A stretch of DNA of 64,000 nt from an uncultured Bacilli bacterium (GCA_947628905.1 CANRBQ010000003.1:336-64335), one strand, 5' to 3'. Counted from the first letter of the stretch, positions 3 through 64,000 are shown. Numbers and translations are program-made. The notes: generated by a model from the letters alone, not told the origin.

Positions 3-1274
3 GCTTTAGGAGACGGGAACTATGATTCTTATTGTGTTGTTGATGGTATTAAAAATAATAATGGTATCACTATTGAATATAAAGATGGCGGTGTTAATTT
101 TACGGGAATAAAAAAACAAGGCACTAAATGTTATTTATATTTTGATGTTGGAAGTAGTGATCCTGTTGATAAGACATTAGCGGCATTAAAATTAAATACA
201 TTAGGAACGATTGGAAAAATAACAGGCCCAAGTTGTAATGGAAATAAAAATGAATCGTGTTATACTAGTGGATCACCAGATAATAAGAAAAATAATATGG
301 CAGAAAACGGAGTTTATGATACAGTAGATGATTATGGAAAGACATATGTTTTTCGAGGATTTATTCAAAACAATTGGGTAAAATTTGGTAAAAAAGATAA
401 TGACGATATATGGTGGAGGATTATTCGAATCAATGGAAATGGAACAATCCGATTAATATATGCTGGAACTGGTGCATCTGCTCCAGCGACATATACCAAT
501 GCAACTCAAATAGGAACAAAAGCATTTAATTCAACCTATAGTGATAATAGATATGTGGGATTTATGTATAATACAAATAGCAATAGTAGTCAAGAAGATT
601 TAGGTTCTACTCTTTCAAATAGTACAATAAAAGGAGAATTAGATACATGGTGGGGACAAACAACTTTAGGAAATTCAGGAAATAAAGAAAGAATAGATGT
701 AGATACAGGATTTTGTAATGATCGAAGTTTATCTCCAGTAGCTCATAGAAGTTATCAAGGACCTGGAGGTGGTGCAGGAACTACTCAAACAGCATATGCA
801 CCGGCACATAGAGTATTGCAAAGTGGAGGTACAAGTTGGGATACAACTGAACAAGAACCAACCCTTAAATGTGCTAATCCAAAAAGAGATTTATTTACAG
901 GACCAGGTGCTGCAGCAGGAGGTATTCAAGGAGCAACTAGTAAGATAGAAGGAAATAATAAATTAACTAATCCAGTAGGGTTAATAACTATGGACGAAGT
1001 AATATACGCAGGAGGTTTTGCGGGTCAAAATAATGATGGATACTGGCTATATACAAAACAAAATTATTGGACCATGTCTCCGTTTTGTGCGCACGGCAGT
1101 GGCGATGCTGGCGTGTTCCTTGTGAATTCGGATGGCGACCTTGGTGACAACTTCGTGAACCTCACGTATGGTGTGCGCCCAGTAATAAATCTGAAAGCTG
1201 ATACAGAGATAGATTTTCAAGATCCAGGTGGTGCTGGTACAGGAACAACATCTAATCCATACATAGTTCAATAA
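3..1274 (+). CDS. Anchored surface-protein family, paralog 1 (5' end cut by window edge); C-terminal DUF6273/DUF1566-like lectin-fold module
   Basis: Frame 3 is open from base 3. The translation upstream of the ATG at 297 (..GTKCYLYFDVGSS..TLAALKL..) aligns with paralogs 48509..50026(-) and 61172..63169. Ordered family motifs: DDYGKTYVFRG, NNWVKFG, WWRIIRINGNGTIRLIYAG, YVGFMY, GFCNDR, PTLKC, NNKLTNPVGLITMDEVIYAGG, YWTMSP, GVRPVINLK. The fold assignment is inferred from the YW..SP...GVRP pattern. Confidence 0.8.
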   Translation, partial: ALGDGNYDSYCVVDGIKNNNGITIEYKDGGVNFTGIKKQGTKCYLYFDVGSSDPVDKTLAALKLNTLGTIGKITGPSCNGNKNESCYTSGSPDNKKNNMAENGVYDTVDDYGKTYVFRGFIQNNWVKFGKKDNDDIWWRIIRINGNGTIRLIYAGTGASAPATYTNATQIGTKAFNSTYSDNRYVGFMYNTNSNSSQEDLGSTLSNSTIKGELDTWWGQTTLGNSGNKERIDVDTGFCNDRSLSPVAHRSYQGPGGGAGTTQTAYAPAHRVLQSGGTSWDTTEQEPTLKCANPKRDLFTGPGAAAGGIQGATSKIEGNNKLTNPVGLITMDEVIYAGGFAGQNNDGYWLYTKQNYWTMSPFCAHGSGDAGVFLVNSDGDLGDNFVNLTYGVRPVINLKADTEIDFQDPGGAGTGTTSNPYIVQ

Positions 1275-8964: not shown

Positions 8965-8968
8965 AATA

Positions 8969-11532: not shown

Positions 11533-11613
11533 AATATATTCCTTTCTATCTTCTAACTATATTATATCATAAAAGAGTCTATTTAAAAATAAAAAAGCAA
11601 AGTACTTATTACT

Positions 11614-11994: not shown

Positions 11995-12036
11995 TTTTAT
12001 CACCAATTCTATTTTATCAAATATTATTATTTAAAT

Positions 12037-13987: not shown

Positions 13988-14113
13988 AACTAATCACCTC
14001 TTTCTTATATCTTAAATCTACTACTATGTTTTGTCAAGTACTAAGTAATACATATATATTTATAATTTTTAAAAAATATGCTAAAATAATAATAGTGTTA
14101 AGGGTTGATGAAA

Positions 14114-14416: not shown

Positions 14417-14435
14417 AAAAGCTTTCTAAAAATTC

Positions 14436-15356: not shown

Positions 15357-15368
15357 ATTTAACTCCTC

Positions 15369-17660: not shown

Positions 17661-17724
17661 AACTACTCCTAAAGAATTTCTTTCCCATATTTTACCATGT
17701 CTATTTTTCAAATACAATAAAAAC

Positions 17725-19092: not shown

Positions 19093-19182
19093 ATTTATCC
19101 CTCGTAAATTAGTATATAATAAACTCCTATTTTTATAAGTAATAAAAAACATAAATATATCTTATACTTATATTGATGAATA

Positions 19183-26600: not shown

Positions 26601-27140
26601 TTAAATATTAATAAAAGTTTTATATTCACTTTCTTTAAGTTTAATTTTTCTATCTCTTCTAATACATTCTAAAGTATTACCTAAACACCAATCAGCACTA
26701 AAACCAAAATCATTACATATTTCTTTTAAATCTGCACTAGACATCATTAATTTGCCTAATTCGTAATATCCAATATTACTTCTTTTCGTATGTATTTCTT
26801 TAGCAAACTCTTCCTGTGTTAAGCCTTCAATTTTTCTAATAATTCTAATATTTTTTCCTAAATATTTTAAATCTAATTCATTCTTAAATTCATATATATT
26901 TCTATCAAAAGTAGTAGTTAATCCAAAAATATAATCAACAGGCACTCCATAATAATAAGAAAGCTTAACTAATTGCCTCAAAGAAACATTTTGATATCCA
27001 TTTTCCCATGAATTAATTAATGATTGTGATACTCCCAAATCTTTAGATAATTCTGCTTGAGTTATACCCTTTAAACTTCTTAAAAATTTAATTCTAACTT
27101 CTATTACAGTTAAATCTTTATTATCACTTGTAATTACCAT
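26601..27140 (-). CDS. XRE-family regulator with two Cro/C1 HTH domains (regulator A, divergent from paralog 2)
   Basis: Two HTH_3 units: LRSLKGITQAELSKDLGVSQSLINSWENG and IRKIEGLTQEEFAKEIHTKRSNIGYYELG. Confidence 0.85.
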   Translation of the reverse strand: MVITSDNKDLTVIEVRIKFLRSLKGITQAELSKDLGVSQSLINSWENGYQNVSLRQLVKLSYYYGVPVDYIFGLTTTFDRNIYEFKNELDLKYLGKNIRIIRKIEGLTQEEFAKEIHTKRSNIGYYELGKLMMSSADLKEICNDFGFSADWCLGNTLECIRRDRKIKLKESEYKTFINI

Positions 27141-27372
27141 ATATTACCAACTTCCTAACAAAATTATCTCCATTAAAGATAATGATAACAACACAAAAAT
27201 AAAGAGCATGGCATAATAATACAAATAATCACAATTTACTTGAAAAATTATCAATAATGTTGTATATTAGAAATATAACATAGAAAAATATAATAAGTTT
27301 TGATATGTTTTGTCGATTGTAATGAAAAAGTAGAGCAAGTTAGTTATAATAGACAAAGAAGAGGAGAGAGTC

Positions 27373-28860
27373 ATGGAATTTGTAACATTGAAAAAGGATA
27401 ATACTAAAAAAGTATTATTAGTTTTAGTTGTATTTATAGCTATAGTAGTCACTATAGTTTCTTTAAGTTCAAGAGCAAAATATCAAGTAACCAGTAGTGC
27501 TCAAATAGTAAAAGGAACAGTAAATTATAAACCATATGATTTTAAAATAGTCGAAATTAGAAAAGAAAATGATGCTGGAGTTTATGAATTAACAGATGAA
27601 GTACCAACAACTGGTTATGAAATAAATGAAAAAGATAGTAAATGCATGATAAATGACACAGAACAAGATACAACAGCAGTGTTAAAAACCATAAATGGAA
27701 ACCATACATTTGCTAATCTAAAAAAGATGGATAAATGTACTTTGTATTTTAGTAAAGAGAAAACAGCTGGAGAACAGTTATTATCAAAAAGAACAACAGA
27801 CGAAGGAGAAGATGGATTTACAAATATAGATATAGATGAGCATACAGATGAAAATGGCAAATCTATATTGTATAGTGACGAAGATGACTTTGGAACAACA
27901 TATTATTTTAGAGGAAAAGTAAAAGATAATTGGGTAAAGTTCGGACAAACAAGTGAAGGACAAGATATCTGGTGGCGAATTATCAGAATAAATGGCAATG
28001 GCTCAATAAGAATGATATATACTGGAACAGGCAGTAATGCTCCAACTACAGATGGATTTTTGAATAATAATGGAACAGGTAGTCAATTACAAACAAATGC
28101 ATATAATGAATATTATAATGACAATAAATATATAGGTTATATGTATGGAACACAACCAACAGGTACTGTTAATAACGAAACCACACCAACAATTAACTAT
28201 GATCAAGCTCATGAAAATAATTATGATAGTGATATTAAAAAAATATTAGATAATTGGTATAGTACTAATCTAAAGGCAAGTTATGCTCAATATATAGATC
28301 CAAATTCCGGTTTTTGCAATGATAGGAAAGCAGCAATAATGAGTAGATATGGATATGGAACAGATGGATATGGTAATCATCTAACAGCATATGCGGCAGT
28401 AGATAGATTGCTAGATACAAATTGGAATGCCAATGCAAAACACACACCAACGTTCAAGTGTGCTCGAAAAGAAGATACATTCACACTTCCAGATGCCAAG
28501 AAACCAAACGGAGATGACTATGGCAATCATAAATTAAAAGCTAATAATGGAAAAGGAGAAAATAGCCCAATAGGATTAATCACCATAGATGAAGCAGTAT
28601 ATGCAGGAGGATATTATTACAGAGCAAATAATCAATCCGATAATAAAGAATTTTATTTATATACAGGCCAATATTATTGGACCATGTCACCGTATTCCTT
28701 TTACGGTACTTATGCTAATATGTTTTATATACATTTAAATGGCAATCTCAACAACAACGACGTAAACAATGCGCGAGGTGTACGCCCTGTCATAAATCTC
28801 TCTGCTAATGTAAAATTATCAGGAGATGGTACAAAAGATACCCCATATGAAGTATCTTAA
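27373..28860 (+). CDS. Anchored surface-protein family, paralog 2 (most divergent)
   Basis: Signal anchor VLLVLVVFIAIVVTIV. DDFGTTYYFRG, NWVKFG, IWWRIIRINGNGSIRMIYTG, YIGYMYG, GFCNDR, PTFKC, SPIGLITIDEAVYAGG, YYWTMSP, GVRPVINLS. GAGGAG RBS. Confidence 0.85.
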   Translation: MEFVTLKKDNTKKVLLVLVVFIAIVVTIVSLSSRAKYQVTSSAQIVKGTVNYKPYDFKIVEIRKENDAGVYELTDEVPTTGYEINEKDSKCMINDTEQDTTAVLKTINGNHTFANLKKMDKCTLYFSKEKTAGEQLLSKRTTDEGEDGFTNIDIDEHTDENGKSILYSDEDDFGTTYYFRGKVKDNWVKFGQTSEGQDIWWRIIRINGNGSIRMIYTGTGSNAPTTDGFLNNNGTGSQLQTNAYNEYYNDNKYIGYMYGTQPTGTVNNETTPTINYDQAHENNYDSDIKKILDNWYSTNLKASYAQYIDPNSGFCNDRKAAIMSRYGYGTDGYGNHLTAYAAVDRLLDTNWNANAKHTPTFKCARKEDTFTLPDAKKPNGDDYGNHKLKANNGKGENSPIGLITIDEAVYAGGYYYRANNQSDNKEFYLYTGQYYWTMSPYSFYGTYANMFYIHLNGNLNNNDVNNARGVRPVINLSANVKLSGDGTKDTPYEVS

Positions 28861-30442: not shown

Positions 30443-31319
30443 TAAATTTGCCAAAGAAAGAAAAACAGAAATAAAAAACTACAAACCAAAATATTTTATT
30501 GCATCTGAAGGAAGTAATTCAGAACCTCTATATTTTGAAGGGTTAAGCAATTCAATTTTGTTTGAAAATATATCAATAATAAATATTTTAAGAGATTATG
30601 CCTACACTAGAAGCAGCCATCCAAGTTTTATTATAAATATGTTAAAAGAATTTATATTAAACGTAACTAATGATAAAATAACTGTTTTAGAATTGAAAAA
30701 TAAAATTGCCAATTGCATTTATGAAAATAGTTATAAAATAAAAATAGATGATATTTATGAAAAATTAATTAACATTTATAAAAAGGATAATTATGAAATA
30801 GAAAAAGAAAAACTAGATCAACTATTTTTAAATCTATTTAAAAGTGAAATATATAAAGATTTAGCAGAAAATTTTTCTTTATATTTTGCAAATCAAAACA
30901 TAACATATTCTAGTACAACTGATAAAATAAATATTGTTATTGATAGAGATAAACAAAATTTTAAGGATTATCAATATGATGAAGTAATAGATTTTTGCAA
31001 AGAAAATAATATAAACCTATATGTAAGTAATCCAACTTTTGAATTTTGGCTCTATCTTCATTTCCCAAATATTGAAAAAGATGATAAAACAAAAATGTAT
31101 GAAAATAAATATGTAACCAATACTAAAAGATATTTAGAAAAAAGATTATATGAAATATGTAAATATAAAAAGGAAAAATTAAACTTTAAAGATTTTGAAC
31201 CTTTTATAAAAGATGCTATTAAAAGAGAAAAAAACTATAAAGAAGATTTAAAAAGCTTAAAAAATGAACTAGGAAGCAATGTAGGAATACTTATAAATGA
31301 AATGCTTAAAAACGAGTAA
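30429..31319 (+). CDS. RloB-like (Toprim-related) protein, partner of the ATPase
   Basis: YFIASEGSNSEPLYFEGL (RloB N-terminal CEG..TE..YF pattern), IVIDRDKQ, SNPTFEFWLYLHF (RloB SNPCFE.W.LLHF pattern). Overlaps the ATPase gene by 14 nt. Confidence 0.8.
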   Translation: MRITDKFAKERKTEIKNYKPKYFIASEGSNSEPLYFEGLSNSILFENISIINILRDYAYTRSSHPSFIINMLKEFILNVTNDKITVLELKNKIANCIYENSYKIKIDDIYEKLINIYKKDNYEIEKEKLDQLFLNLFKSEIYKDLAENFSLYFANQNITYSSTTDKINIVIDRDKQNFKDYQYDEVIDFCKENNINLYVSNPTFEFWLYLHFPNIEKDDKTKMYENKYVTNTKRYLEKRLYEICKYKKEKLNFKDFEPFIKDAIKREKNYKEDLKSLKNELGSNVGILINEMLKNE

Positions 31320-33388: not shown

Positions 33389-33555
33389 ATTTCAACCCTA
33401 TTCTTTATGCTCATATTCTATATTATATAATATATTATAACCACTTTCAATTATTTTTTACATATACTGTCAATATTCGACAAAAATATTACAAATATAT
33501 TGAGCTATAACTAAAAATATTATATAATAATTACGAATATATTATGGAGGCTAGT

Positions 33556-35286: not shown

Positions 35287-35295
35287 GAGGTAAAA

Positions 35296-37874: not shown

Positions 37875-37951
37875 GGCGGAATTGGTGAAGCGGTTAACAC
37901 GGTAGATTGTGGCTCTATTATGCAAGGGTTCGAATCCCTTATTTCGCCCCA
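37875..37951 (+). tRNA. tRNA-His (anticodon GTG) with encoded G-1 and CCA
   Basis: Acceptor stem GCGGAAT/ATTTCGC. Anticodon stem GTAGA/TCTAT with loop TTGTGGC. T arm AAGGG-TTCGAATC-CCCTT. An extra 5' G opposite discriminator C is the tRNA-His hallmark. Confidence 0.9.
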
Positions 37952-48508: not shown

Positions 48509-50026
48509 TCAAGATATTTCGTATGGAAAATCAATTGTGCCAGTTCCTGTTATTGTTACATCAGACTTCAAATTTATGACAGGTCGAACACCCCATGTAA
48601 AAAACACACTATAAATTCCTAAACTTCTTGCATCTACAGTAGCTACAGTAGCATCAGGTGCAAGAGAAGGTGTCATCGTCCAATAATATTGTCCTGTAGA
48701 AATCCAACAGCCATAATTAATCTTGCTTGCTAATCCTCCTGCAGCTATTGCTTCATCCAAAGTTATCAATCCTATCGGATATGTTAATTTATTATTTCCA
48801 TTTATCTCATTTCCTTCACTATCCATTGTTCCTTGCGCATTAGGTCCCGTAAATAAATCTCTTGTTGGATTTGCACATTTTAATGTTGGTTCTTGTGTTG
48901 AATCATAACTTGTAGTTCCACTCACATGAGTTCGATCATATCCTGCATATGCTGTTTTCTCTTTACCATATCCTGCGACTCCCCAATTATCATGAGCTTT
49001 TGGAGATAGTTCTCTATCATTGCAAAAGCCTGTTTCTACATCTATTTTATCTCTGTATTGTTCCTTTATTCCCGAACTTCCTATATACCAATCATCTATT
49101 TCTTTCTTTATTGTACTATCTTTTTCGTTTTGATGTGCATTACCATAATTCATCGCATCTACTGGACCATTCATATATCCTACATACGTATTATCAGAGG
49201 CAACATTATTATACTTTTGAACAGTTGGATCGCTACTATTTGATGTTGTTATAGCAGCTCCTTTTCCACCATTTTGATTTGCCCATCTACCATCTGATGG
49301 CTTATCTATTCCAGAATATATCATTCTTATTGTTCCATTGCCATTGATTCTAATGATTCGCCAATACATGTCTGCAAATCTTACCCAGTTATTATCTATT
49401 GTTCCTCTAAATACATATGTCTTTCCAAAGTCATCTTCTGTTTCATATATTCCCTTATCTTGTGATGTACAATTACTGCCACTTTTATTATGGCTTTCAT
49501 CATTAGTGCCATTATCACATGCTGTTGTACTTATTGCAGAAGGTAAATCCCCAGTTTTTGATAAATGTAATGCCTCTAGAGTAGCATCAGGATCACCACT
49601 TGTACCAACATCAAAATATAAATAACATTTAGTTCCTTGTTTAGTAACTCCTTTAAAATTTACTTTACCACCCCTATATTCTACACTTATTCCACTAACA
49701 ACTTCACCATTAACTTCACAATGAGTTGTATTTTTATTAGAGTTACTTAAAGGTTGTAATTTATATCCACTTACTGGTACATCTCCATTTTTATAACTTC
49801 CTGGAATACCTTTACCATCTGAACCTTTTTCTTGTATTTTTACTGCTATTAAATTAAAATCTGCTAAACTATAACTAACTTTCCCTTTAACTATTTGTAT
49901 ATTACTTGTTACATGATATTTTGCTCTACTATATGTTATATATACTATTCCTATTAACAATACTAATATTGTTATTGTTAATACTATTTTCTTTTTTCTT
50001 CCTTTACTTAACTTCTCTATCCTCAT
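48509..50026 (-). CDS. Anchored surface-protein family, paralog 3
   Basis: Signal anchor IVLTITILVLLIGIVYI. GTKCYLYFDVGTS, TLEALHLSKTGDLP, DDFGKTYVFRG, MYWRIIRINGNGTIRMIYSG, GFCNDR, PTLKC, NNKLTYPIGLITLDEAIAAGG, YYWTMTP, GVRPVINLK. Confidence 0.85.
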   Translation of the reverse strand: MRIEKLSKGRKKKIVLTITILVLLIGIVYITYSRAKYHVTSNIQIVKGKVSYSLADFNLIAVKIQEKGSDGKGIPGSYKNGDVPVSGYKLQPLSNSNKNTTHCEVNGEVVSGISVEYRGGKVNFKGVTKQGTKCYLYFDVGTSGDPDATLEALHLSKTGDLPSAISTTACDNGTNDESHNKSGSNCTSQDKGIYETEDDFGKTYVFRGTIDNNWVRFADMYWRIIRINGNGTIRMIYSGIDKPSDGRWANQNGGKGAAITTSNSSDPTVQKYNNVASDNTYVGYMNGPVDAMNYGNAHQNEKDSTIKKEIDDWYIGSSGIKEQYRDKIDVETGFCNDRELSPKAHDNWGVAGYGKEKTAYAGYDRTHVSGTTSYDSTQEPTLKCANPTRDLFTGPNAQGTMDSEGNEINGNNKLTYPIGLITLDEAIAAGGLASKINYGCWISTGQYYWTMTPSLAPDATVATVDARSLGIYSVFFTWGVRPVINLKSDVTITGTGTIDFPYEIS

Positions 50027-50087: not shown

Positions 50088-50116
50088 ATTATAATCTAGC
50101 AAGTGTAAATTGTCAA
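50088..50116 (-). promoter_or_regulatory. Consensus sigma-A-type promoter of paralog 3
   Basis: On the minus strand: TTGACA, 17 nt (ATTTACACTTGCTAGAT), TATAAT. The spacer matches the spacer of the paralog 4 promoter at 13 of 17 positions. Confidence 0.65.
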
Positions 50117-50189
50117 CAAAAAACACGCTATTTCACCGCTTTTTGAAAATTTAATTATATTAATGAGAAAATAGGGGTGGTGATTTTAT

Positions 50190-50645
50190 ATGAACTATTC
50201 AGATAGACTAAAAGAATTAAGAAACGATAAAGAAATAACTCAAAAAGAAATAGCGGATTATTTAAAAATGGATAAAGATAGCTATGGACATTATGAAAGA
50301 CAAGATTATATTATTCCAATTAAGCATCTAAATTCTGTTTGTAATTATTTAAATGTTTCTATTGATTACATATTAGGATTAAGTAATACAATTGAATATC
50401 CTCATAGTAATAATGAAATAGATAGAATTAAATCTGGAGAAAGATTAAAGAAATTAAGGAAAGATAAGAAAATGACTCAAGCAGTATTAGCCTCTCATCT
50501 AAAAACAGTATCAACAGTAATAGGGGGCTATGAAAAAGGACGTAGATTAATAGCTACTCCATTTCTCTATATGATTTGCAAAGATTTTAAAATAAGTGCA
50601 GATTATTTATTAGGAAAAATTGATAATCCCAAATATTTAAAATAA
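50190..50645 (+). CDS. XRE-family regulator with two HTH domains (regulator B, divergent from paralog 3)
   Basis: LKELRNDKEITQKEIADYLKMDKDSYGHYE and LKKLRKDKKMTQAVLASHLKTVSTVIGGYE. The C-terminus ISADYLLGKIDNPKYLK is shared with regulators C and D. Confidence 0.85.
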   Translation: MNYSDRLKELRNDKEITQKEIADYLKMDKDSYGHYERQDYIIPIKHLNSVCNYLNVSIDYILGLSNTIEYPHSNNEIDRIKSGERLKKLRKDKKMTQAVLASHLKTVSTVIGGYEKGRRLIATPFLYMICKDFKISADYLLGKIDNPKYLK

Positions 50646-50793
50646 AAATATAATTATAATATAAAATATATAAACTCATTTCTTTTTATAACATATAATA
50701 TATGGTTAAGAAAATGCATTTCTAAAGCATATTTTAATTGCTTAAAATTAATTTATACTATATAATATTTTATAGAAAGAGGTGAAGGAAAAA

Positions 50794-53700
50794 ATGAAAA
50801 TAATGAGAAAAAGTATATCATTATTATTAGTCGCGGCGATGCTTTTTCAAAGTGTGGCACCAATCATGGTTTATGCTGAAGCTACTCCAAATGAGTCAAT
50901 CACAGAAGTTCCTATAAATGAATTTGAAACTAAAGGTAACATTGAAGTAGAAACTCATTTAGCACTTCCTTTAATAAATCATCAAAAAAGTAATATTACA
51001 TTTAGTATTACAGATGAAGAAGATAATACTGCTGAAATCTCTTTAAATGATTTATTAGAAGATGATTATTTAGAACAACAACTTAACATTGGTGATCAAA
51101 CTATTCGCACTGTTGCAACTAAACGTAACTATGAAGGTCACTTATTAGGAAAAGATGAATCTTTAGTTTATTTAAACATAAATTTATATTCTTTAAATAA
51201 AGGAAAGTACACTATAAAATTAAGTGGCAAACATTTTGTTACATATTCTGTTGATGTTACATTAGATGATTATTCTAAAAGAGTAAATATTACTAATGAA
51301 AATGGTATGTTTGCTCTAGGAGATTTAAACTCTGATAATAAAATCAATAGTACTGATAGTAATATAATGTTAAAAGCAATAGAAGAAAATGATACTTCTA
51401 AAGATTTAAATTTAGATGGCAAAGTTGATATTGCGGATTTAAATTATATTACGGCGATAACTACTAGTGAAGTAAAAAAAGCTACAATTGAAAATACTAA
51501 TGCTATTATATCTGATAAAGATATTAAAGTAGAACTAGCTACTGATAGTATTAAAAATGGTGATATAAGTAATATTTTTACTGATGAAGGAAGTGTTACT
51601 TTAAAGCCTACTAAAGAAGGAGAACCAATTACTTTAGCTTTAGATTTTGATGAAGAAAAAGCTATTGAAATGAGTGAAATACGAATGTCTGTAGGGGAAA
51701 ATGCTCCAACAGAAATGGAAATTAAAGTAGAATCAATAAATGGTGAAGAATTTACTCTTACGGATGATGACATAATATATCTTGATGAAAAAGATGCTCA
51801 AGCTTTTACAGATAAAGCAGAGGATAATGCCATAGTTATTAATTTACATAAACAAATTGCAGTCAAAAAAGTAACTATTAAAATTAATAAAACTACATCT
51901 GAAGAAAAACTTGCTGATATTGCTAAAGTTGAATTTTTAAATAATGTTAAAGTAGAAACTACTAAACCAGATAATTTTGGTACTCCTAAAAATATTAAAG
52001 TTGATGGTTCCAAAAGTGAACAATTAACAGTTAGATTTGACGAAGAAGTCAATGTAACAGGTTATGAAATAAAAATAACTGGACCCGAAAAAAATGGTGT
52101 TACTTACCAAACTTCATATAATACTTTTACTATAGAAGATTTAAAAAATTATAAAGAATACAAAATATCTGTTAGATCTATAAATGGGGAATGGCAAAGT
52201 AAATGGAGTGATCCAGTAATTGGTATTCCAACTGCTTCAAGAAAACCACCTGTTGTTGATATGGTTGTAGCAACTCCAGGTTATTCTAGTATTGATTTTA
52301 GTTGGAAAGATATGGATGATACTAAAAGCTATAATATTTACTATCGTGAAGCCAATACTGAAGGATTTGAAAGTATTAAAGATATTACAGGAACTAAATA
52401 TTCTCTAAAAGGATTAAAGGCTGGTGTAGAATATGAAGCTTATATATCTGGCAACAATGAATTAGGTGAAGGAACTGGTTCTAAAATTGTTAAAGTAAGA
52501 ACTTTAGAAGCTACAGCTACTATCTATCCTAAATACAAATTAATTAATGATACTTTAAGTGATGGCAAAACTAGTCATATTAATGATGTTAAATATAAAA
52601 CAGGTGCTTCTTATTTAACAAATAATGATAATAATAGAACTCCTAGTGATAAATGGTCTATGGTTGATGATAATCATCTTTCATATTGGGAAATTAATGA
52701 TTGGCAAATAAATGCCAGTGCTAATTATAATTTTGATAATCCAATCTTTATATTAGATCAAAAATATAAAATGGATGAATTTGTTATAACTGTTCCTTCA
52801 GGTTATCCAAACGCATATAAGCCAGGCAGCTATAATGAAAAAAGTACTGAAGCAAATGATACTAAAGTCTATTATTGGGAAGATACTAATGATTTAAATT
52901 CAAATAGTAAAAAAGAAGTAAGAGGAGTTTTAACTCAGAAAAAAGATAAAAATAATCAACCATATTATGTTTTAAAATTAAAAGATCCAATTGAAACTGC
53001 AGCTGTTCAATTTGGTATCACTGTTGTTGGCACTGGTAGACTTATTCAAATTGCCGAAGTTAAATTTTATGAATACGATTCTTTAGTAGATGATGTTGCT
53101 GCTTTATTTACTGATGAAATGCGTTTAACTCTTGCTGAAGGTGTTGACCAAACCACAATTGATAAATTAAGATTAAGAGCCGATGAAGAACATAATGGGG
53201 AATTAAATCCATATCGTGATATTATTTTAGAAGATTTAAAATATGCTGAAAAAATATTAAATGATGAAGATTTAGCAGATGATGTTATTAAATTAAATCC
53301 TAATATTTCTAATTACTACAATGGACATTTAGGATTTGCAATGTCTATTAATGATTATCAACCTTTAGGAATTGCTGCCAAAGAAGGTGAAAATATTGCC
53401 GTTTATGTTGGAGGCAATGGAAAAATAAATGCTCAGATAGTATACACGCAATATCATGCTGAAGCTAATGCTTGGCAAACTACTAGTAAAAATTTAGTCA
53501 AAGGTCAAAATATATTTACCGTTCCTAAAATAGGTAGTTCTAGTGATGAAAGAGGTGGAAGTTTATATATTAGATATACTTCAACTCCTGATGTTAACAA
53601 TCCTATTAGTGTTCGTGTAAGTGGTGGAACTAAAATCCCAGTTTTAGATTTATCTTCAAGTAATGATGAAACATCTAAAAAGGAAAAAATAAGCAAATAT

Positions 53701-55950
53701 ATTACTGAACTAGAAAAATATAATTCAACTTTAAATCAAAAATATGCTGATGCTAATCTAACTTTTGATGAAAAAAGTAGTGTTCTAGGCAGTACTGAAA
53801 TAGTAACTAAACATGGATTGTGGTCTGTATCATCAATCGCGGCTGAAAAAGCTTTAACAGAAAGTGACAAAGTAACCCAATTATATGAATCTACTGAAGC
53901 TTTTGATGAAATGATGGAAATGTTTTACCGTCAAAAAGGTTTAAGTGAAAACTCAGAAGAAACTGCAAATAGAGCGCCTAAAGCCCGTATCAACATTCGC
54001 TATATGCAAATGTTTGATGGCGCATTCATGTATGCCGGGGGATATCATATTGGTATTGAGTATGGTTCAATAAGTGGACTATTTACTGCCAAAAAACAAA
54101 CAGCCAATAAAACTGGTTACTTTGGTTGGGGTATTTCTCATGAAATAGGTCATCAAATAAATCAAAGTGCTTTAGTTCATGCTGAAGTTACTAACAATAT
54201 TTATGCCTTACTTGCCCAAACAAGTAACGATCAAGATTCTTCGCGTTTAGAAGATAGCAAAATTTATGATAAGATTTATGATAAAGTTACATCTCATACT
54301 TTAGGTAAATCTCAAAATGTTTTTGTAACATTAGGTATGTATTGGCAATTACATTTAGCCTATGATTATAATGAAGATGTTACAAGTACAAATACTTTTA
54401 ATGATTCTAATTCCATTTATGCTCGAATTAATAAATTAACTAGAACTGAAAAATTATCTGGTTATAGCAAAGACGATTTATTATATATTTACGCAAGTCT
54501 TGCTGCTAAAAAAGATTTATTAGAATTCTTTACTACCTGGGGATTACAACCAACTAAAGAAGCTCAAAATTATATTAAAGAACAATCTTTAGAACCAGAA
54601 ACTAGAAAAATTGCTTATTTAAATGATGCAGCTCGTCGTTATATAATTAATGGTGGAAGTGCTATGAGTAGTGATACTAAAATTACAAGCACTATGGATA
54701 CTCCGAATGTTGATAATTCTAAAAAAGAAGTAACATTAAACTTTGAAGTTACTAAAGATGAAGATAAAATATTAGGTTATGAAATTTTAAGAAATGGTGA
54801 GTCTGTCGCATTTATAACAAATGGCAATACCTATGTTGATCATATTGGTTCTGAAAATAATCGAGCTTACACTTATCAAGTAATTGCCTATGATTATTTA
54901 CTTAATAAAACTGAGGCTAAAGAATATAATGAAATAAAAATTTCTTATGAAGGTTATATAGCTTCAAAAGATACATTTAGTATTGAATCTAATTTTAAAC
55001 AAAGTAATGAAATAGTTGATCCTGAAGATGATAATTTTGATTATGGAAAATTGTCTATTAATAATTTAATTGATGGCAAAACTGAAACAAGCTTTAATGG
55101 AATTGAAAGAGTAAAATCATTAACTATTAATGGTGATAAAGTTGATAGTACTACTAATAACACTACTCCATATGTTATCATTAATTTAAATGATAAATAT
55201 GCTATAACTGGTATAGAATATCAAGCATTAGTAGAAAATGGAGTATTAAATAGTAATACAATTAAAAAATATAATATCTATGTTAGCGAAGATAAAGAAC
55301 ATTGGACTCTTACTAAAACAGGTGAATTTACTTTAGATGAATCTAATAATTATACTGATAAAATATACTTTATGAAACAAGGAACAACAAGTGAAAATCA
55401 ACTTTGGACTTATAATGATATATCTTATGTTAAAATTGAAGCAGTTGGTAATACTGGTGGTATATCAGGAAGTGAAATTAGTGTTATTGCTCCTCCAGGA
55501 GATAACATTGATATTGGAATGACCGAAGACAATATTCCAACAATTGGTATTCTTGATAAAGATTATTTATATGATGCTGAATCTAATGAAATAATAAAAG
55601 CAGGATCCGTAATTATTGCCGGTGATTATCGTGGTGAACCAGCCTTTAATATTTTAACTATAAGTGATGCTAATGATATTAAAAAACGTTATGAAGGCTA
55701 TGAATTATTATTTGCTGAAGTAAATGAAGATAAATCAGTTTATGAAGTATTAAAAGGTACATGGATGTATATTTTAACTCAAGAACAATATGAAGAAATG
55801 CGAGCTAATACTAATGGTATTAGAGCTAATCTATATCGTGTAAATAATGCTTATGATAATACTGATGAAAGATTAACCAGTACTTCTAAAAAAGTTACAA
55901 ACTTACCAGCATATGAAGACTTAAAACAAATGTCTATTAAAGAAAATTAA
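50794..55950 (+). CDS. Giant secreted M60-like (enhancin-type) zinc glycoprotease with dockerin, FN3 and discoidin-like domains
   Basis: Signal peptide. Dockerin GDLNSDNKINSTDSNIMLKAI..DLNLDGKVDIADLNYI. FN3-like repeats (PKNIKVDGSKSEQLTVRF.., PPVVDMVVATPGYSSIDFSW..). M60 core GYFGWGISHEIGHQINQ. ATG at 50794 follows AGAGGTGA. Confidence 0.8.
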   Translation: MKIMRKSISLLLVAAMLFQSVAPIMVYAEATPNESITEVPINEFETKGNIEVETHLALPLINHQKSNITFSITDEEDNTAEISLNDLLEDDYLEQQLNIGDQTIRTVATKRNYEGHLLGKDESLVYLNINLYSLNKGKYTIKLSGKHFVTYSVDVTLDDYSKRVNITNENGMFALGDLNSDNKINSTDSNIMLKAIEENDTSKDLNLDGKVDIADLNYITAITTSEVKKATIENTNAIISDKDIKVELATDSIKNGDISNIFTDEGSVTLKPTKEGEPITLALDFDEEKAIEMSEIRMSVGENAPTEMEIKVESINGEEFTLTDDDIIYLDEKDAQAFTDKAEDNAIVINLHKQIAVKKVTIKINKTTSEEKLADIAKVEFLNNVKVETTKPDNFGTPKNIKVDGSKSEQLTVRFDEEVNVTGYEIKITGPEKNGVTYQTSYNTFTIEDLKNYKEYKISVRSINGEWQSKWSDPVIGIPTASRKPPVVDMVVATPGYSSIDFSWKDMDDTKSYNIYYREANTEGFESIKDITGTKYSLKGLKAGVEYEAYISGNNELGEGTGSKIVKVRTLEATATIYPKYKLINDTLSDGKTSHINDVKYKTGASYLTNNDNNRTPSDKWSMVDDNHLSYWEINDWQINASANYNFDNPIFILDQKYKMDEFVITVPSGYPNAYKPGSYNEKSTEANDTKVYYWEDTNDLNSNSKKEVRGVLTQKKDKNNQPYYVLKLKDPIETAAVQFGITVVGTGRLIQIAEVKFYEYDSLVDDVAALFTDEMRLTLAEGVDQTTIDKLRLRADEEHNGELNPYRDIILEDLKYAEKILNDEDLADDVIKLNPNISNYYNGHLGFAMSINDYQPLGIAAKEGENIAVYVGGNGKINAQIVYTQYHAEANAWQTTSKNLVKGQNIFTVPKIGSSSDERGGSLYIRYTSTPDVNNPISVRVSGGTKIPVLDLSSSNDETSKKEKISKYITELEKYNSTLNQKYADANLTFDEKSSVLGSTEIVTKHGLWSVSSIAAEKALTESDKVTQLYESTEAFDEMMEMFYRQKGLSENSEETANRAPKARINIRYMQMFDGAFMYAGGYHIGIEYGSISGLFTAKKQTANKTGYFGWGISHEIGHQINQSALVHAEVTNNIYALLAQTSNDQDSSRLEDSKIYDKIYDKVTSHTLGKSQNVFVTLGMYWQLHLAYDYNEDVTSTNTFNDSNSIYARINKLTRTEKLSGYSKDDLLYIYASLAAKKDLLEFFTTWGLQPTKEAQNYIKEQSLEPETRKIAYLNDAARRYIINGGSAMSSDTKITSTMDTPNVDNSKKEVTLNFEVTKDEDKILGYEILRNGESVAFITNGNTYVDHIGSENNRAYTYQVIAYDYLLNKTEAKEYNEIKISYEGYIASKDTFSIESNFKQSNEIVDPEDDNFDYGKLSINNLIDGKTETSFNGIERVKSLTINGDKVDSTTNNTTPYVIINLNDKYAITGIEYQALVENGVLNSNTIKKYNIYVSEDKEHWTLTKTGEFTLDESNNYTDKIYFMKQGTTSENQLWTYNDISYVKIEAVGNTGGISGSEISVIAPPGDNIDIGMTEDNIPTIGILDKDYLYDAESNEIIKAGSVIIAGDYRGEPAFNILTISDANDIKKRYEGYELLFAEVNEDKSVYEVLKGTWMYILTQEQYEEMRANTNGIRANLYRVNNAYDNTDERLTSTSKKVTNLPAYEDLKQMSIKEN

Positions 55951-60373: not shown

Positions 60374-60442
60374 ATGAATAAAAAAGATTTTTTAGTCTTA
60401 TTATTAATACTAATAATTATCCTAGAAATTATATTTAAATAG
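60374..60442 (+). CDS. 22-codon hydrophobic peptide ORF (MNKKDFLVLLLILIIILEIIFK)
   Basis: Strong RBS AAGGAGGTGG 6 nt upstream of the ATG, a single TM-like core and charged ends. It is absent from the otherwise duplicated region near 63300-63350. Confidence 0.4.
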   Translation: MNKKDFLVLLLILIIILEIIFK

Positions 60443-60453
60443 AAATATTTGAA

Positions 60454-60656
60454 TTGTTTTAGAATATAAAAAGCACCACCTTAAATAAGTGGTGCAAACC
60501 AACCGGCAAGCACCATGAAGTGCTTCGCTAAATTAATAATAATATATTTTTAAATAAAAGTAAAGATTATTTATTTAATATTTGAGGATTATCAATTTTT
60601 CCTAAAAGATAATCAGCAGAAATATTATAATTTTTACATATTGTATAAAGAGAATG
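60454..60656. repeat. Copy 1 of a ~200-bp near-identical direct repeat (3' end and terminators of XRE regulators C and D)
   Basis: TTGTTTTAGAATA..AAAGCACCACCTTAAATAAGTGGTGC..AAGCACCATGAAGTGCTTCGCTAAATTAATAATAATATATTTTTAAATAAAAGTAAAGATTATTTATTTAATATTTGAGGATTATCAATTTTTCC.. recurs at 63350-63553 with a handful of mismatches. Confidence 0.85.
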
Positions 60657-61025
60657 TGTAGCAATGATAAATTCTCCTTTTTCATATTTAGAAATAATAG
60701 TTCTAGCAACATTTAATAATATAGCTAATTTCTCTTGAGTATATTTTTGACTTTTACGAAACATTTTAAGTCTTTCACCAGATAATATTAAGTCTATTTC
60801 ATTTTTAGAGTTATTATATTGTTTAGTATTAGTAAAATCAAATATATAGTCTATTGATACATTAAAATAATTACATAAGGTATTCAAATGTTTCAAAGGT
60901 ATACTTTGCTTTTCTTTTTCATACCTACTATATAAACTATCACTTATATTTAGTATGTTTCCCATTTCTACAAAATTTAATCCAATCCTTTCTCTTAACT
61001 CTTTTAATTTAATGCCATAGTTCAT
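60567..61025 (-). CDS. XRE-family regulator with two HTH domains (regulator C, divergent from paralog 4)
   Basis: LKELRERIGLNFVEMGNILNISDSLYSRYE and LKMFRKSQKYTQEKLAILLNVARTIISKYE. The last ~30 aa are identical to regulator D. Confidence 0.85.
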   Translation of the reverse strand: MNYGIKLKELRERIGLNFVEMGNILNISDSLYSRYEKEKQSIPLKHLNTLCNYFNVSIDYIFDFTNTKQYNNSKNEIDLILSGERLKMFRKSQKYTQEKLAILLNVARTIISKYEKGEFIIATHSLYTICKNYNISADYLLGKIDNPQILNK

Positions 61026-61098
61026 TTATCTCACCAGTATAATTTTCTCATACTTTTATTTTCAATATAAAAAATCCGAATAAATATTAGAATTTTTC

Positions 61099-61127
61099 TT
61101 GACTTTTAACATTTGCTAAATTATAAT
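61099..61127 (+). promoter_or_regulatory. Consensus-like promoter of paralog 4
   Basis: TTGACT (61099-61104), 17 nt (TTTAACATTTGCTAAAT), TATAAT (61122-61127). The TTCTTGACT context recurs at 63992-64000, the window edge. Confidence 0.65.
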
Positions 61128-61171
61128 TTTTACATAAGCTGGAAAAGTTTAAATGATTGGAGTAAAGGAAA

Positions 61172-63169
61172 ATGAAAAAGAATAAAAGAGTAATAATAAT
61201 AGTAAGTGTGTTAATAGGAGTAATAGGAATATCTTTGGCATATTTTGTAGGTAAAACAATATTCAAAGGAACAGGAGCAATGACCGAAGGAAAGACTGCC
61301 ACCTTAAATGGATCAACATTAGAAGTAAATGGTAATATAAACTTTAATGATGAAAATATATATCCAGGGCATGAAACATTATCTAAAATAGAAGTAATAG
61401 CAACCGGTAATAATGAATTAATCGCATATAATTTAATATGGAATGGAATAAATAGTTTAAATACAGAATTAAAATATAAAGTATATAAAACAAAAGAAGA
61501 TAGAAAAGATATAATACTTACATGTAATAAGAAAAAGAAAGTAACAAATGGAATACAATATTTAAATGAAGAATGTGAAACAAATATAGAAGAGATAGAA
61601 TTAATAAAAGAAGGAGTAATAGAACATAGTGAAATAGAAACAACAACAGAACTAACAGATAATGAATATATAACATCTAGTCAAACAGGAGAGAAAGTAT
61701 ACTACTATATCATAATAGAATATCCAAACTTAACAGAAAAAGAAACAGAAGAACAAAACGAAGATATAGGGGAAGGATTTAAAGGGAAAGTACATGCCAA
61801 GATAAGTGATAGTAAAGCAGATATAAACCTAGTAGCGTTTTACAAAGAAACAGAAGCAGGTTCAGGACAATATGAAGAAGTAGAAGATATACCACAAGGA
61901 TATGTACTAAATAAAGAGCAAACAAAGTGTAATAATGAAGATATAGAATTAGAATGGGATAATAATAAATTAATAATATCTAATTTAACTAAAAGTGGAA
62001 CATCATGTTATTTGTATTTTGATGTTAAAAAATCTAGAAGTTCTAGTGAAACACTAACAGCCTTGCATTTATCAAAAACTGGAGATTTACCTTCTACTGG
62101 GATAAGTACATATGCATGCGATGATAATACAAATGATTCGAGTCATGCAACAGTTAAAAATTGTACATCACAAGATAAGGGAGTGTATGAAACAGAAGAT
62201 GACTTTGGAAAGAGTTATGTATTCCGTGGAACAGTAGATAATAACTGGGTATACTTTGCTAACATGTATTGGAGAATCATCAGAATAAATGGAAATGGTA
62301 CAATAAGAATGATATATGCTGGAACAACAAAACCAAGTGAAGGAAAATGGGGTAATACAGGAGATAATGCGGCAATAAAGACTAGTACAGGAGCAACAAC
62401 AAGTGCATTTAATGATTACTATAATGATAATAAATACGTAGGGTATATGTATGGAACAGCAAAAACTGGTTCATATAGTAACGAAACTACACCAACTACT
62501 AGTTATAAGGAAGCTCACGAAAATAATCATGATAGTACAATAAAAGAAGAAATAGATAAATGGTATATAGGAGATACAGGAATAAAAGAAGAATATAGAA
62601 ATAAAATAGATGTAGAAACAGGATTTTGTAGTGATAGACAACTATCTCCAGAAAAACATAGCACTTTTTTAGGTGCAAAAGACGCAGGAGCGGGATATTC
62701 AAAAACTCAAACGGCTTATGCACCAGCTCATAGAGTATGGCAAAACGAAAGCAATAATAGCTTTGATTCAATACAAAAACCAACACTAAAATGTACAAAT
62801 AAAACAAATGATTTATTTACAGGTCCAAATGCTCAAGGAACAAAAGATAACAAAGGGTATGAAATAAAAGGAAATAATAAATTAACAACACCAGTAGGAT
62901 TAATAACCATGGATGAAGTAATCATAGCAGGAGGATTACCTGGAAATAGCAACTATGGATATTGGCTATACACAGGTCAATATTATTGGACAATGACGCC
63001 GGCTTTCTTCAATGGTTCAAATGCCAACGTGTTCCGTGTTGGTACAGATGGATATCTCATAGGAGATGGTGTGGTCGGTGCATATGGCGTGCGCCCTGTA
63101 ATAAATCTGAAATCTAATATAACAATATCAGGAAGTGGTACAATAGATTCTCCATATGAAATATCTTAG
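61172..63169 (+). CDS. Anchored surface-protein family, paralog 4 (longest; extra N-terminal module)
   Basis: Signal anchor. An extra ~250-aa N-terminal region (LAYF..TLNGSTLEV..NIYPGHE is faintly TasA/SipW-leader-like; low confidence). Then SCYLYFDV, TLTALHLSKTGDLP, DDFGKSYVFRG, MYWRIIRINGNGTIRMIYAG, YVGYMYG, GFCSDR, PTLKC, NNKLTTPVGLITMDEVIIAGG, YYWTMTP, GVRPVINLK. Confidence 0.85.
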   Translation: MKKNKRVIIIVSVLIGVIGISLAYFVGKTIFKGTGAMTEGKTATLNGSTLEVNGNINFNDENIYPGHETLSKIEVIATGNNELIAYNLIWNGINSLNTELKYKVYKTKEDRKDIILTCNKKKKVTNGIQYLNEECETNIEEIELIKEGVIEHSEIETTTELTDNEYITSSQTGEKVYYYIIIEYPNLTEKETEEQNEDIGEGFKGKVHAKISDSKADINLVAFYKETEAGSGQYEEVEDIPQGYVLNKEQTKCNNEDIELEWDNNKLIISNLTKSGTSCYLYFDVKKSRSSSETLTALHLSKTGDLPSTGISTYACDDNTNDSSHATVKNCTSQDKGVYETEDDFGKSYVFRGTVDNNWVYFANMYWRIIRINGNGTIRMIYAGTTKPSEGKWGNTGDNAAIKTSTGATTSAFNDYYNDNKYVGYMYGTAKTGSYSNETTPTTSYKEAHENNHDSTIKEEIDKWYIGDTGIKEEYRNKIDVETGFCSDRQLSPEKHSTFLGAKDAGAGYSKTQTAYAPAHRVWQNESNNSFDSIQKPTLKCTNKTNDLFTGPNAQGTKDNKGYEIKGNNKLTTPVGLITMDEVIIAGGLPGNSNYGYWLYTGQYYWTMTPAFFNGSNANVFRVGTDGYLIGDGVVGAYGVRPVINLKSNITISGSGTIDSPYEIS

Positions 63170-63181
63170 CTAAATATATTA

Positions 63182-63292
63182 CTTGTCTATTATGCTTACC
63201 TTTTTATTAATAGACAAGATATGGGTTATACCTTTACCCAACATAATACTAGAATAGAAAGCCAATATTATAATTCTTTCTATTCTTTTTTA
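63182..63292 (+). terminator. Family 3' stem-loop (covarying version) plus intrinsic terminator of paralog 4
   Basis: CTTGTCTATTA (63182-63192) pairs with TAATAGACAAG (63208-63218). Downstream, AGAATAGAAAG / CTTTCTATTCT is followed by T6. Confidence 0.6.
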
Positions 63293-63349
63293 ATATAAAA
63301 ATCTTACTTACTTTTAAATAAAAATTTTTGGATTAAGAGAATATAAAAT

Positions 63350-63553
63350 TTGTTTTAGAATAAAAAAAGCACCACCTTAAATAAGTGGTGCAAAGCAAAC
63401 TGGCAAGCACCATGAAGTGCTTCGCTAAATTAATAATAATATATTTTTAAATAAAAGTAAAGATTATTTATTTAATATTTGAGGATTATCAATTTTTCCT
63501 AAAAGATAATCAGCAGAAATATTATAATTTTTACATATTGTATAAAGAGAATG
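63350..63553. repeat. Copy 2 of the ~200-bp direct repeat
   Basis: See 60454-60656. On the minus strand it contains the hairpins AAGCAC..GTGCTT and GCACCAC..GTGGTGC plus a T-run, which terminate the XRE genes. Confidence 0.85.
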
Positions 63554-63922
63554 AGTAGATATAGGAAAATGGCCTTTTTCATATTCTGTTATAATTGTTC
63601 TTGCAACATGTAAGGTATTAGCCAACTTTTCTTGAGTCATTTTATTTAGTTTACGAATTTCTTTTAAACGAGTACCGCTTAATTTTAAATTGATTTCTCT
63701 TGCTGAATTTAAATATTTAGCATTAGTGACAAATCCAAAAAAATAATCTAAAGAAACATTAAAGTAATTGCAAAATTCATTTAAATGTTTAATTGGAATT
63801 ATAGCATCTTGAGTCTCATAATGACTATACGTGTAAGGAGAAATGTTTAAGACCTTTGCAATCTCTTTTTGACTTACATCTTTAGAAGTTCTTATTTCAT
63901 TCATATTATCTTTATAATTCAT
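63464..63922 (-). CDS. XRE-family regulator with two HTH domains (regulator D, faces the window edge)
   Basis: The ATG at 63922 follows GGTGA, as in regulator C, and gives 152 aa like C. Two HTH_3 units. The upstream region TCACCAGTATAATTTTCTCA matches the one upstream of regulator C. Confidence 0.85.
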   Translation of the reverse strand: MNYKDNMNEIRTSKDVSQKEIAKVLNISPYTYSHYETQDAIIPIKHLNEFCNYFNVSLDYFFGFVTNAKYLNSAREINLKLSGTRLKEIRKLNKMTQEKLANTLHVARTIITEYEKGHFPISTHSLYTICKNYNISADYLLGKIDNPQILNK

Positions 63923-64000
63923 CCCTATCACCAGTATAATTTTCTCATTTTTTTATACTCAATTGTTTTTATTGCCAAAATATTGACTTTTTTCTTGACT

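Follow-up and report, generated by a model that had tools for sequence, protein, structure and literature searches.

Does each copy of an amplified surface-protein gene in uncultured gut Bacilli have a transcriptional switch of its own? The question is raised by a stretch of 64,000 nucleotides (nt) from an uncultured Bacilli bacterium (GCA_947628905.1 CANRBQ010000003.1:336-64335), hereafter the window, and above all by its positions 60,454-64,000, which hold two adjacent copies of a two-gene module and the start of a third family gene. In each module, a gene for a predicted exported, lectin-like protein (the family gene) is divergent from a gene for a regulator that consists only of two Cro/C1 (XRE) helix-turn-helix (HTH) domains and has no sensor domain. 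The rest of the window carries two more complete modules and one paralog truncated by the window start. The arrangement is real, conserved and previously undescribed, and it is assembled from known kinds of parts. Judging from sequence comparison, each surface-protein variant probably has its own switch. We estimate at roughly 55 per cent the probability that, within an amplified repertoire of exported lectin-like proteins that bind ligands, each paralog is controlled by a transcription factor of its own module, a reading in which we infer DNA binding, regulation of the neighbour, surface location and ligand binding.

A preliminary description of this DNA had reported four paralogs and four divergent two-HTH regulators. 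All eight are borne out by open reading frames (ORFs), by Pfam HTH domains and by motifs lying on invariant alignment columns:

3..1274, plus strand: family paralog 1, partial, cut at the window start; 654 bits with the family hidden Markov model (HMM), and included in the paralog alignment
27373..28860, plus strand: family paralog 2, 495 amino acids (aa); paralog alignment and family HMM; DUF6273 at 22.7 bits against a cut-off of 23.5
48509..50026, minus strand: family paralog 3, 505 aa; paralog alignment and family HMM
61172..63169, plus strand: family paralog 4, 665 aa; AlphaFold2 models and Foldseek
26601..27140, minus strand: regulator A, 179 aa, two HTH domains (HTH_3/HTH_19, twice), Type II; relatives stand upstream of family genes in loci L009, L015, L062, L064, L065 and L076 of other genomes
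50190..50645, plus strand: regulator B, 151 aa, two HTH domains (Pfam), Type I
60567..61025, minus strand: regulator C, 152 aa, two HTH domains, N-terminal recognition helix ISDSLYSRYEKE; ORF and Pfam
63464..63922, minus strand: regulator D, 152 aa, N-terminal recognition helix ISPYTYSHYETQ, alternative GTG start at 63931; ORF and Pfam
60473..60495, minus strand: intrinsic terminator of regulator C, GCACCACTTATTTAAGGTGGTGC followed by a T run
63369..63391, minus strand: intrinsic terminator of regulator D, identical to that of C

Aligned with 61172..63169 over the whole shared length, the other three paralogs show 42, 58 and 50% identity, and the invariant columns hold every motif listed for the family (C.LYF, DDFG..Y.FRG, WRIIRINGNG.IR.IY.G, GFC.DR, PT.KC, GLIT.DE...AGG, YWTM.P and GVRPVINL). 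All four regulators give two matched stretches each, with HTH_3 at 61.6-85.1 bits (cut-off 23) and HTH_19 at 71.7-82.8 bits (cut-off 30.2). At least three types of regulator can be distinguished: proteins of about 150 aa with two HTH domains (B, C and D), proteins of 170-180 aa with two HTH domains (A), and proteins of about 77 aa with a single one. Among Type I regulators the HTH scaffold is conserved and the recognition-helix residues of both domains vary. Some genomes have two tandem regulators upstream of one family gene (L058, 4620-5678; L080, 2924-3956).

The pairing of regulator and family gene is not peculiar to the window. Among the genomes of GTDB species, at least 563 stretches were confirmed as relatives by tblastn, and the best 79 of them form the basis of the locus analyses. 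HMMs of the four regulators and four paralogs were run against all ORFs of these 79 loci. The count was restricted to 71 family genes with 700 nt or more of sequence upstream, the second gene of any tandem pair being left out. A divergent XRE gene lies immediately upstream in 42 of the 71, and a same-strand XRE gene in none. Ten further small divergent ORFs were tested and proved to include five single HTH_3 proteins and one Arc-like protein, so that a small divergent DNA-binding gene faces at least 48 of the 71 family genes. Regulator C has 1,762 homologs at E<=1e-10. Six regulator homologs were chosen on long contigs with their neighbours disregarded, and all six face a family gene (HMM E 1e-29 to 1e-110) across the same control-region layout. 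The regulator and the surface-protein gene are thus co-conserved as a module, and the preliminary description is not refuted on the ground it had named itself, that the XRE genes might fail to accompany the paralogs in related genomes.

An indication of what the regulators may do comes from the DNA between the divergent genes. We grouped 24 Type I modules by the N-terminal recognition helix of their regulators and compared their intergenic regions, which yielded two class-specific boxes:

61077..61086, unstranded: class-specific box CGAATAAATA, candidate operator of regulator C, midway between the divergent promoters; from the helix-class comparison
63971..63987, unstranded: class-specific box ATTGCCAAAATATTGAC, candidate operator of regulator D, a direct repeat ATATTGmC with a period of 11; identical in L030, variant in L012

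Exact CGAATAAATA is present in 5/5 modules whose regulator has the helix ISDSLYSRYEKE (module C of the window, L049, L082, L083 and L080) and in 0/19 other modules, a split with a hypergeometric chance of 1 in 42,504 if relatedness is ignored. It sits in the otherwise unalignable middle of the intergenic region. When 920 kb were checked, 10/10 genes encoding SDSLYSRYE, from six distinct modules and several genomes, had CGAATAAATA at 133-143 nt from the helix codons, and stray copies numbered five, about the chance rate. In L083 and L080, CGAATAAATA forms half of an 18-20 bp palindrome, TATTTATTCGAATAAATA. A second helix class, ISPYTYSHYET (module D of the window, L030 and L012), pairs with ATTGCCAAAATATTGAC. 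Inspection by eye revealed no DNA box tracking the helix class of the C-terminal HTH. That regulators with the same N-terminal recognition helix always have, in the sequences compared, the same DNA box at a fixed distance is new here and, though indirect, it is good evidence for a separate operator read by each regulator class. The individually switched variants proposed in the preliminary description thereby gain indirect support. Its other suggestion, cross-repression among regulators, is not supported, each class box being found once in the window, at its own module.

The boxes stand among elements that, unlike them, are shared among the modules of a type:

27141..27372, unstranded: control region A; holds the Type II elements TTGAAA..TGTATATTAGAAATATAACATAGA and, as a direct repeat, GTTTTGATATGTTTTGTCGA, found again at six loci of other genomes
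50088..50116, minus strand: promoter of paralog 3, TTGACA-17-TATAAT (12/12), from the promoter match
50164..50183, minus strand: regulator-proximal motif of module B, TCACCACCCCTATTTTCTCA; on the regulator strand an extended -10-like TGAGAAAAT, then a ribosome-binding site
61031..61051, unstranded: regulator-proximal motif of module C, TCACCAGTATAATTTTCTCAT, reading ATGAGAAAAT-N5-TGGTGA on the minus strand; present in nearly all Type I modules
63928..63948, unstranded: regulator-proximal motif of module D, from the motif search
61099..61127, plus strand: promoter of paralog 4, TTGACT-17-TATAAT (11/12, sigma-70-type), with its -35 inside TTCTTGACT; invariant columns in the control-region alignment
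61134..61145, plus strand: element directly after the -10, ATAAGCTGGAAA (consensus ATAAGyTAGAAA..CTAA); invariant or near-invariant alignment columns

Type I regions have three features in common across genomes: ATGAGAAAAT-N5-TGGTGA at the regulator start, which combines an extended -10-like TGnGAAAAT with a ribosome-binding site; the family-gene promoter TTTTTCTTGAC-17-TATAAT; and ATAAGyTAGAAA..CTAA immediately past the -10, a conserved element of the 5' untranslated region (UTR) for which no consensus RNA fold was found. Type II control regions have in common a promoter and the direct repeat GTTTTGAyAwGTTTTGTCGA. The recurrence of control-region strings noticed earlier is confirmed, TCACCAGTATAATTTTCTCA being exact at 61031 and 63928, its TCACCACCCCTATTTTCTCA form lying at 50164 on the minus strand and TTCTTGACT holding the promoter -35. 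In the window, TCACCA-N5-ATTTTCTCA has three exact copies, each beside a regulator start, and with up to two mismatches gives 5 matches against 0.35 expected. When paralogs of the same genome are compared, identity is 87-99% in the 70 nt preceding the start codon, 51-76% in the proteins and 43-61% in the cognate regulators.

A six-codon frame, MRK(L/F/Y)(Y/I/L)W*, runs through ATGAGAAAAT-N5-TGGTGA at 61036-61051, 63933-63948 and 50164-50178 and in most Type I modules elsewhere, with its stop overlapping the ribosome-binding site of the regulator. It was considered as a leader peptide and rejected: it has no ribosome-binding site of its own and is reduced to MRK* in module B, L012 and L085. The frame is probably a by-product of two DNA motifs, promoter and ribosome-binding site, held at a fixed spacing.

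We found no sign of a DNA-based switch. Homopolymers of 8 or more and short tandem repeats are absent at the four window modules, no inverted repeats are common to the modules, and no recombinase, integrase, reverse transcriptase or structural phage genes were seen beside them. Expression variation, if there is any, works through transcription factors.

The preliminary description had also predicted a fifth paralog past the window edge and a recent duplication of the module, and both claims turn on the DNA around regulators C and D:

60450..60658, unstranded: conversion tract, comprising the 3' end of the regulator gene, two hairpins and the terminator; matches 63346-63555
63995..64000, plus strand: -35 hexamer TTGACT of the fifth-paralog promoter, from the continuation in L092; the paralog starts about 95 nt past the window

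The existence of the fifth paralog is confirmed indirectly, because L092, an independent contig of 1,052 nt from another sample with an identical regulator D and identical adjoining 78 nt, continues past base 64000 into TTGACT-17-TATAAT, a ribosome-binding site and ATG GAA AAG AAT AAA AGA GTA ..., which encodes MEKNKRVIIIVSVLIGVIG. This peptide differs by one residue from the N-terminus of 61172..63169 (18/19 shared; the first 19 codons are nearly the same). As to the duplication, C and D do share their last ~30 aa and some 200 bp of near-identical DNA (149/150 nt over 60509-60658; about 96% over 60450-60658), a tract that takes in the last ~30 codons, the terminator and about 30 nt past it. 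The N-terminal halves of the two regulators are only about 50% identical. The comparison identifies this as local conversion homogenising just the 3' part of the regulator gene, and since C and D belong to different, old recognition-helix classes, to speak of a recently duplicated module is too strong.

What the regulators face is a protein with a lectin-type fold, as far as structure prediction can tell. AlphaFold2 models were built with 46-71 homologs. The full-length model of paralog 4 (pLDDT 85) comprises an N-terminal hydrophobic helix (aa 5-31), a beta-sandwich domain (43-211) confined to the family forms of about 600-670 aa, a small beta domain with two Cys (218-285) and a core (~300-665). 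Modelled alone, the core of about 370 aa reached a pLDDT of 93.6 and a pTM of 0.94, and its one significant PDB match with Foldseek was 9qa6, the IgA protease of Thomasclavelia ramosa (probability 0.99, E 5e-4, 358 columns, 13% identity, TM score 0.33). The matched part is the N-terminal DUF6273 domain of the protease, described as a C-type-lectin-like core with irregular segments and twice the usual size (PMC12237041). In a viral structure library the best core matches were phage DUF6273 proteins (probability 0.93-0.99). TM scores of the DUF6273 fold matches are low (0.29-0.33), and direct matches to Lcl, the mannose receptor, MBP and CD23 did not exceed a probability of 0.25. The view that the core is a distant, insertion-rich and enlarged DUF6273-type C-type-lectin-like domain therefore holds for the predicted models with the qualification that the lectin link is indirect, via 9qa6. 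Its conservation profile consists of scaffold blocks interrupted by variable, indel-rich loops.

Sequence searches place the family at the border of DUF6273 (PF19789). Three window paralogs score 17.7, 22.7 and 17.9 bits and one has no match, against a gathering score of 23.5, and these sub-threshold matches span just the last ~50-60 residues; DUF6273 was detected in 26/46 relatives (best E 1.6e-5), and some homologs carry it as precomputed annotation. NCBIfam, PADLOC and PDB sequence searches with the paralogs gave nothing meaningful, the three full-length paralogs had no PADLOC match at E<=0.001, and the N-terminal domain alone had no match in the PDB. Pfam scans of the window paralogs and relatives detected no catalytic or pore-forming domain.

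The proteins were called anchored in the preliminary description, which goes further than the data do. The hydrophobic N-terminus measures 18-21 residues in the window paralogs, none of which has a lipobox Cys or indeed any Cys within its N-terminal 30 residues, and the helix may be an uncleaved anchor or belong to a cleaved signal peptide. The family proteins would be exported, surface-located and ligand-binding. Foldseek with the whole multidomain model gave weak and mixed matches, among them a faint likeness of the extra N-terminal domain of the long paralogs to the TasA fibre 8aur (Foldseek probability 0.92, TM score 0.37) and the cannulae 9h8b (probability 0.91). No Pfam or PDB sequence match supports a TasA/camelysin relationship, and no signal peptidase gene was seen in the window, so we keep the TasA/SipW relation as a weak lead.

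The family is very large. An exhaustive search of representatives at 50% identity gave 4,034 clusters at E<=1e-30 and 7,319 at 1e-10, and an indexed search more than 1,400 matches; the members with a source name are all called "hypothetical protein", and no function has been described for the family. The best 79 loci come from rabbit and human gut and belong to metagenome-assembled genomes (MAGs) titled uncultured Bacilli, uncultured Mycoplasma, Mycoplasmatota and Tenericutes, to Mycoplasma sp. CAG:776 and to one "Ruminococcus sp." MAG. These carriers presumably correspond to RF39-type orders. Lapin-030_bin19 alone accounts for 22 of the 79 loci, with at least 24 family genes, and another MAG for ten; copies in single gut Bacilli/"Mycoplasma" MAGs reach at least 11-24. 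Head-to-tail pairs of family genes (e.g. ~410 aa + ~590 aa, gaps of 0-70 nt) occur in L009, L010, L013, L018, L019, L020, L035 and L076; these pairs, behind one regulator or none, look like two-gene operons of paralogs. Two giant relatives, P0268 (4,905 aa) and P0269 (3,528 aa), contain 8-14 tandem lectin-like cores per polypeptide.

We can now propose how the module might work. One gene specifies a two-HTH transcription factor of about 150-180 aa with its own promoter and terminator. The divergent gene, behind a near-consensus sigma-A-type promoter, specifies a predicted exported protein with an N-terminal signal or anchor, optional beta-sandwich domains and the core of about 370 aa. Between the divergent promoters, the N-terminal HTH of the regulator would recognise a private operator, and binding there would set both the amount of the regulator and how far the matching lectin-like paralog is expressed. 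With no sensor domain in the regulators, an on/off or graded transcription-factor switch would be expected, and not ligand induction. As to the sign of regulation, we lean towards repression with autoregulation. The cell would display differing subsets of ligand-binding surface proteins, which could serve adhesion to host, dietary or microbial glycans, or evasion of antibodies or phages.

Several observations weigh against this proposal. The class box lies some 46-53 nt upstream of either likely transcription start, with the centre of the module C box about 17 nt from the family-promoter -35 and at the same distance from the candidate regulator -35. With the box away from the core promoters, and with family promoters close to consensus, it is not evident that simple occlusion would work. 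In the tandem pair of L080 each regulator has its own CGAATAAATA, the second one without a family gene opposite, and as this second regulator keeps its box, the box may serve autoregulation alone. The helix-box association could partly reflect common descent, helix and box being physically linked, though the flanks are unalignable. About one third of the family genes in other genomes are without a recognisable divergent regulator or are second in a tandem pair, regulator and family-protein identities correlate weakly (rho 0.20, reached by 104/2000 permutations), and the window proteins narrowly miss the Pfam threshold for DUF6273.

The main alternative, which we regard as possible though rather unlikely, is that the regulators are ordinary local autoregulators, with the class box acting on the gene of the regulator alone or providing mild local tuning, and that the paralogs are co-expressed, or governed by a global factor reading the shared elements, the expansion serving broad glycan or substrate binding and not surface variation. 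The fixed distance between box and regulator, kept even by the L080 regulator that lacks an opposite family gene, would follow from it, as would the near-consensus family promoters; irrespective of regulator class, all Type I modules have the same elements closest to the two transcription starts, and a promoter and 5' UTR 87-99% identical within a genome suit common control. What it hardly explains, if the regulator is unrelated to its neighbour, is divergent pairing in at least 48/71 family genes and 6/6 regulators, and the match between diversified recognition helices and their boxes suggests that control insulated from, and specific to, each module has been selected for. Private switching could also be carried further, into a purely transcription-factor-based (epigenetic) variation by dozens of private two-HTH regulators, in which one or a few of at least 20 lectin-like proteins are shown at a time, possibly with mutual exclusion through the elements common to the modules; this seems to us doubtful.

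Mobile-element readings fare worse. That the modules are phage or mobile-element cassettes, domesticated or in decay, which join a CI/Cro-like repressor to a DUF6273 protein of receptor-binding type, or that they are a surface anti-phage device (decoy, superinfection exclusion), is suggested by the role of DUF6273 C-type-lectin-like domains as phage receptor-binding domains and targets of diversity-generating retroelements (DGRs; PMC10743442), by best library matches of the regulators to the phage regulator families phrog_8 and phrog_3 and also to RstR, and by the neighbours AbiLi/AbiLii (at paralog 2) and a PDDEXK_2 transposase-like gene (at regulator A). Against these stand the 2 family loci found among 2.9 million viral contigs, compared with at least 563 confirmed stretches in genomes; the housekeeping genes that border the modules in the window and in the loci looked up (metG, asnB, P-type ATPase, EF-P, PBP, RF-1); neighbourhoods in which no reverse transcriptase, integrase or structural phage gene was seen; a family lacking PADLOC matches; and the N-terminal export signals of its proteins. 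We consider such an origin very improbable. It is scarcely credible that the module is a toxin-antitoxin-like or effector-regulator cassette, in which the XRE protein would act as antitoxin or regulator to a large protein that is secreted as a toxin or bacteriocin-like effector. The regulators do match PezA, MqsA, HipB and HigA, but as generic HTH proteins far below the curated cut-offs (their PADLOC matches are likewise generic HTH only), and the weak Foldseek likeness of the full-length model to diphtheria toxin has a TM score of ~0.1 and is lost with the core-only model. Moreover, the genes are divergent and form no operon, the partner is an exported protein of 495-665 aa and not a small cytoplasmic toxin, and it has no detectable catalytic or pore-forming domain. 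On PADLOC, HTH-library, viral-contig and neighbour evidence, we reject the defence system, the toxin-antitoxin module and the prophage repressor module as descriptions of this locus.

Known systems share single traits with the module. SinR of Bacillus subtilis is an XRE-type repressor without a ligand domain, composed of one HTH and an oligomerisation domain and served by an antirepressor, which controls tapA-sipW-tasA and thereby an exported beta-sandwich matrix protein. The combination of an XRE regulator lacking a ligand domain with an exported beta-sandwich protein would recur here in the long paralogs, with two HTH domains and no sipW nearby. The Vsp, Vlp and Vpma proteins of Mollicutes are lipoproteins switched by site-specific inversion or repeat-tract slippage. 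Like these multigene families of variable surface proteins (Mycoplasma bovis vsp, M. hyorhinis vlp, M. agalactiae vpma; PMC9025108), the present one has many paralogs per small genome, near-identical 5' non-coding and signal-peptide regions and diverged mature parts; unlike them, it has no lipobox Cys, repeat tract or shared inverted repeats, and each gene comes with a private transcription factor.

The IgA protease of T. ramosa is likewise exported by a low-GC gut Firmicute and, like the family proteins, has a C-type-lectin-like core that irregular insertions bring to about twice its normal size, but there the DUF6273 domain is a single accessory module, without which IgA is still cleaved and to which no function has been assigned (PMC12237041, PMC12402451), whereas here the core is the main body of a protein without a peptidase domain. 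With the DUF6273/C-type-lectin-fold receptor-binding proteins of phages that are targets of DGRs (tentaclins, Mtd; PMC10743442) the family shares the fold class, a conserved scaffold with variable loops and presumed ligand binding; variation arises there from a reverse-transcriptase mutagenesis cassette and here from many paralogous cellular, chromosomal genes. The idea of a small DNA-binding regulator for each adhesin variant is familiar from fimbrial operons with PapB/PapI-type regulators, which can coordinate through cross-talk which variant is shown (PMC12388093), but those are unrelated proteins of Gram-negative chaperone-usher operons, switched by Dam methylation and Lrp. XRE paralogs have also been amplified in Caulobacter, where RtrA, RtrB and Cdx control the holdfast adhesin (PMC10688885), and in Streptomyces, with many paralogs per genome in whiJ-abaA-bldB clusters (PMC10294661); these regulators have one HTH and shared targets and show no one-to-one pairing with paralogous surface-protein genes. 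In full-text searches on DUF6273, on surface proteins of RF39, on XRE regulators in adhesin control or phase variation and on tandem-HTH XRE proteins, we found no description of the present module or of any system with one regulator per variant, as the preliminary description had supposed.

If private switching is correct, an abundant uncultured gut lineage spends a notable share of a small genome on a lectin-like surface repertoire, each member with an insulated switch, and does so by a route to surface variation distinct from the known inversion, slippage and DGR mechanisms. In its more far-reaching, variation form the proposal would mean antigenic or adhesive change without DNA rearrangement, repeat slippage or methylation. 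The helix-box pairs would constitute a natural library of orthogonal two-HTH regulator/operator pairs, of use for studying the evolution of XRE specificity and for synthetic circuits. It would also give a first functional handle on a thousands-strong family of "hypothetical" proteins and on DUF6273, which is present on the IgA protease and on phage receptor-binding proteins as well.

The window is chromosomal, with a G+C content of 25.6%, and the genes include metG with a T-box, a murA-like gene, asnB, recG and lgt, and genes for an LCP protein, a GH25 muramidase, SpoIIR, a SpoVT-like protein and a bile-salt hydrolase. An Rfam scan of the window found a T-box and a tRNA, both away from the modules, and no other RNA element: the T-box leader lies at 1977-2156, upstream of the methionyl-tRNA synthetase gene, and the solitary tRNA gene at 37876-37948. 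A dockerin-containing protein followed by a cadherin-like-domain protein (33544-36906) is odd company for a lineage labelled 'Mycoplasma'; this pair, together with SpoIIR, the SpoVT-like protein, LCP, GH25 and Lgt, is consistent with a walled, spore-forming gut Firmicute. Defence-like genes occupy 7087-19152 (a Schlafen-group-3-like helicase, a NOV_C protein, an nSTAND3 NTPase and a LigD primase-polymerase/phosphoesterase), and the AbiLi/AbiLii abortive-infection pair (29123-31319; PADLOC E 7e-73 and 2e-18) follows immediately downstream of paralog 2. The PD-(D/E)XK (PDDEXK_2) family transposase-like gene at 25631-26470 is convergent with regulator A. At 50646-55950, 137 nt past regulator B and on the same strand, a gene encodes a 1,722-aa M60-like/enhancin peptidase with FN3 and F5/8 type C domains; the interval between the two showed no terminator, and regulator B might be co-transcribed with this mucinase-like gene or also control it. 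Finally, just beyond the C/D repeat, a hydrophobic 22-codon ORF (60375-60443, MNKKDFLVLLLILIIILEIIFK) follows a strong ribosome-binding site (AAGGAGGTGG) and might encode a small membrane peptide or a type I toxin-like product.

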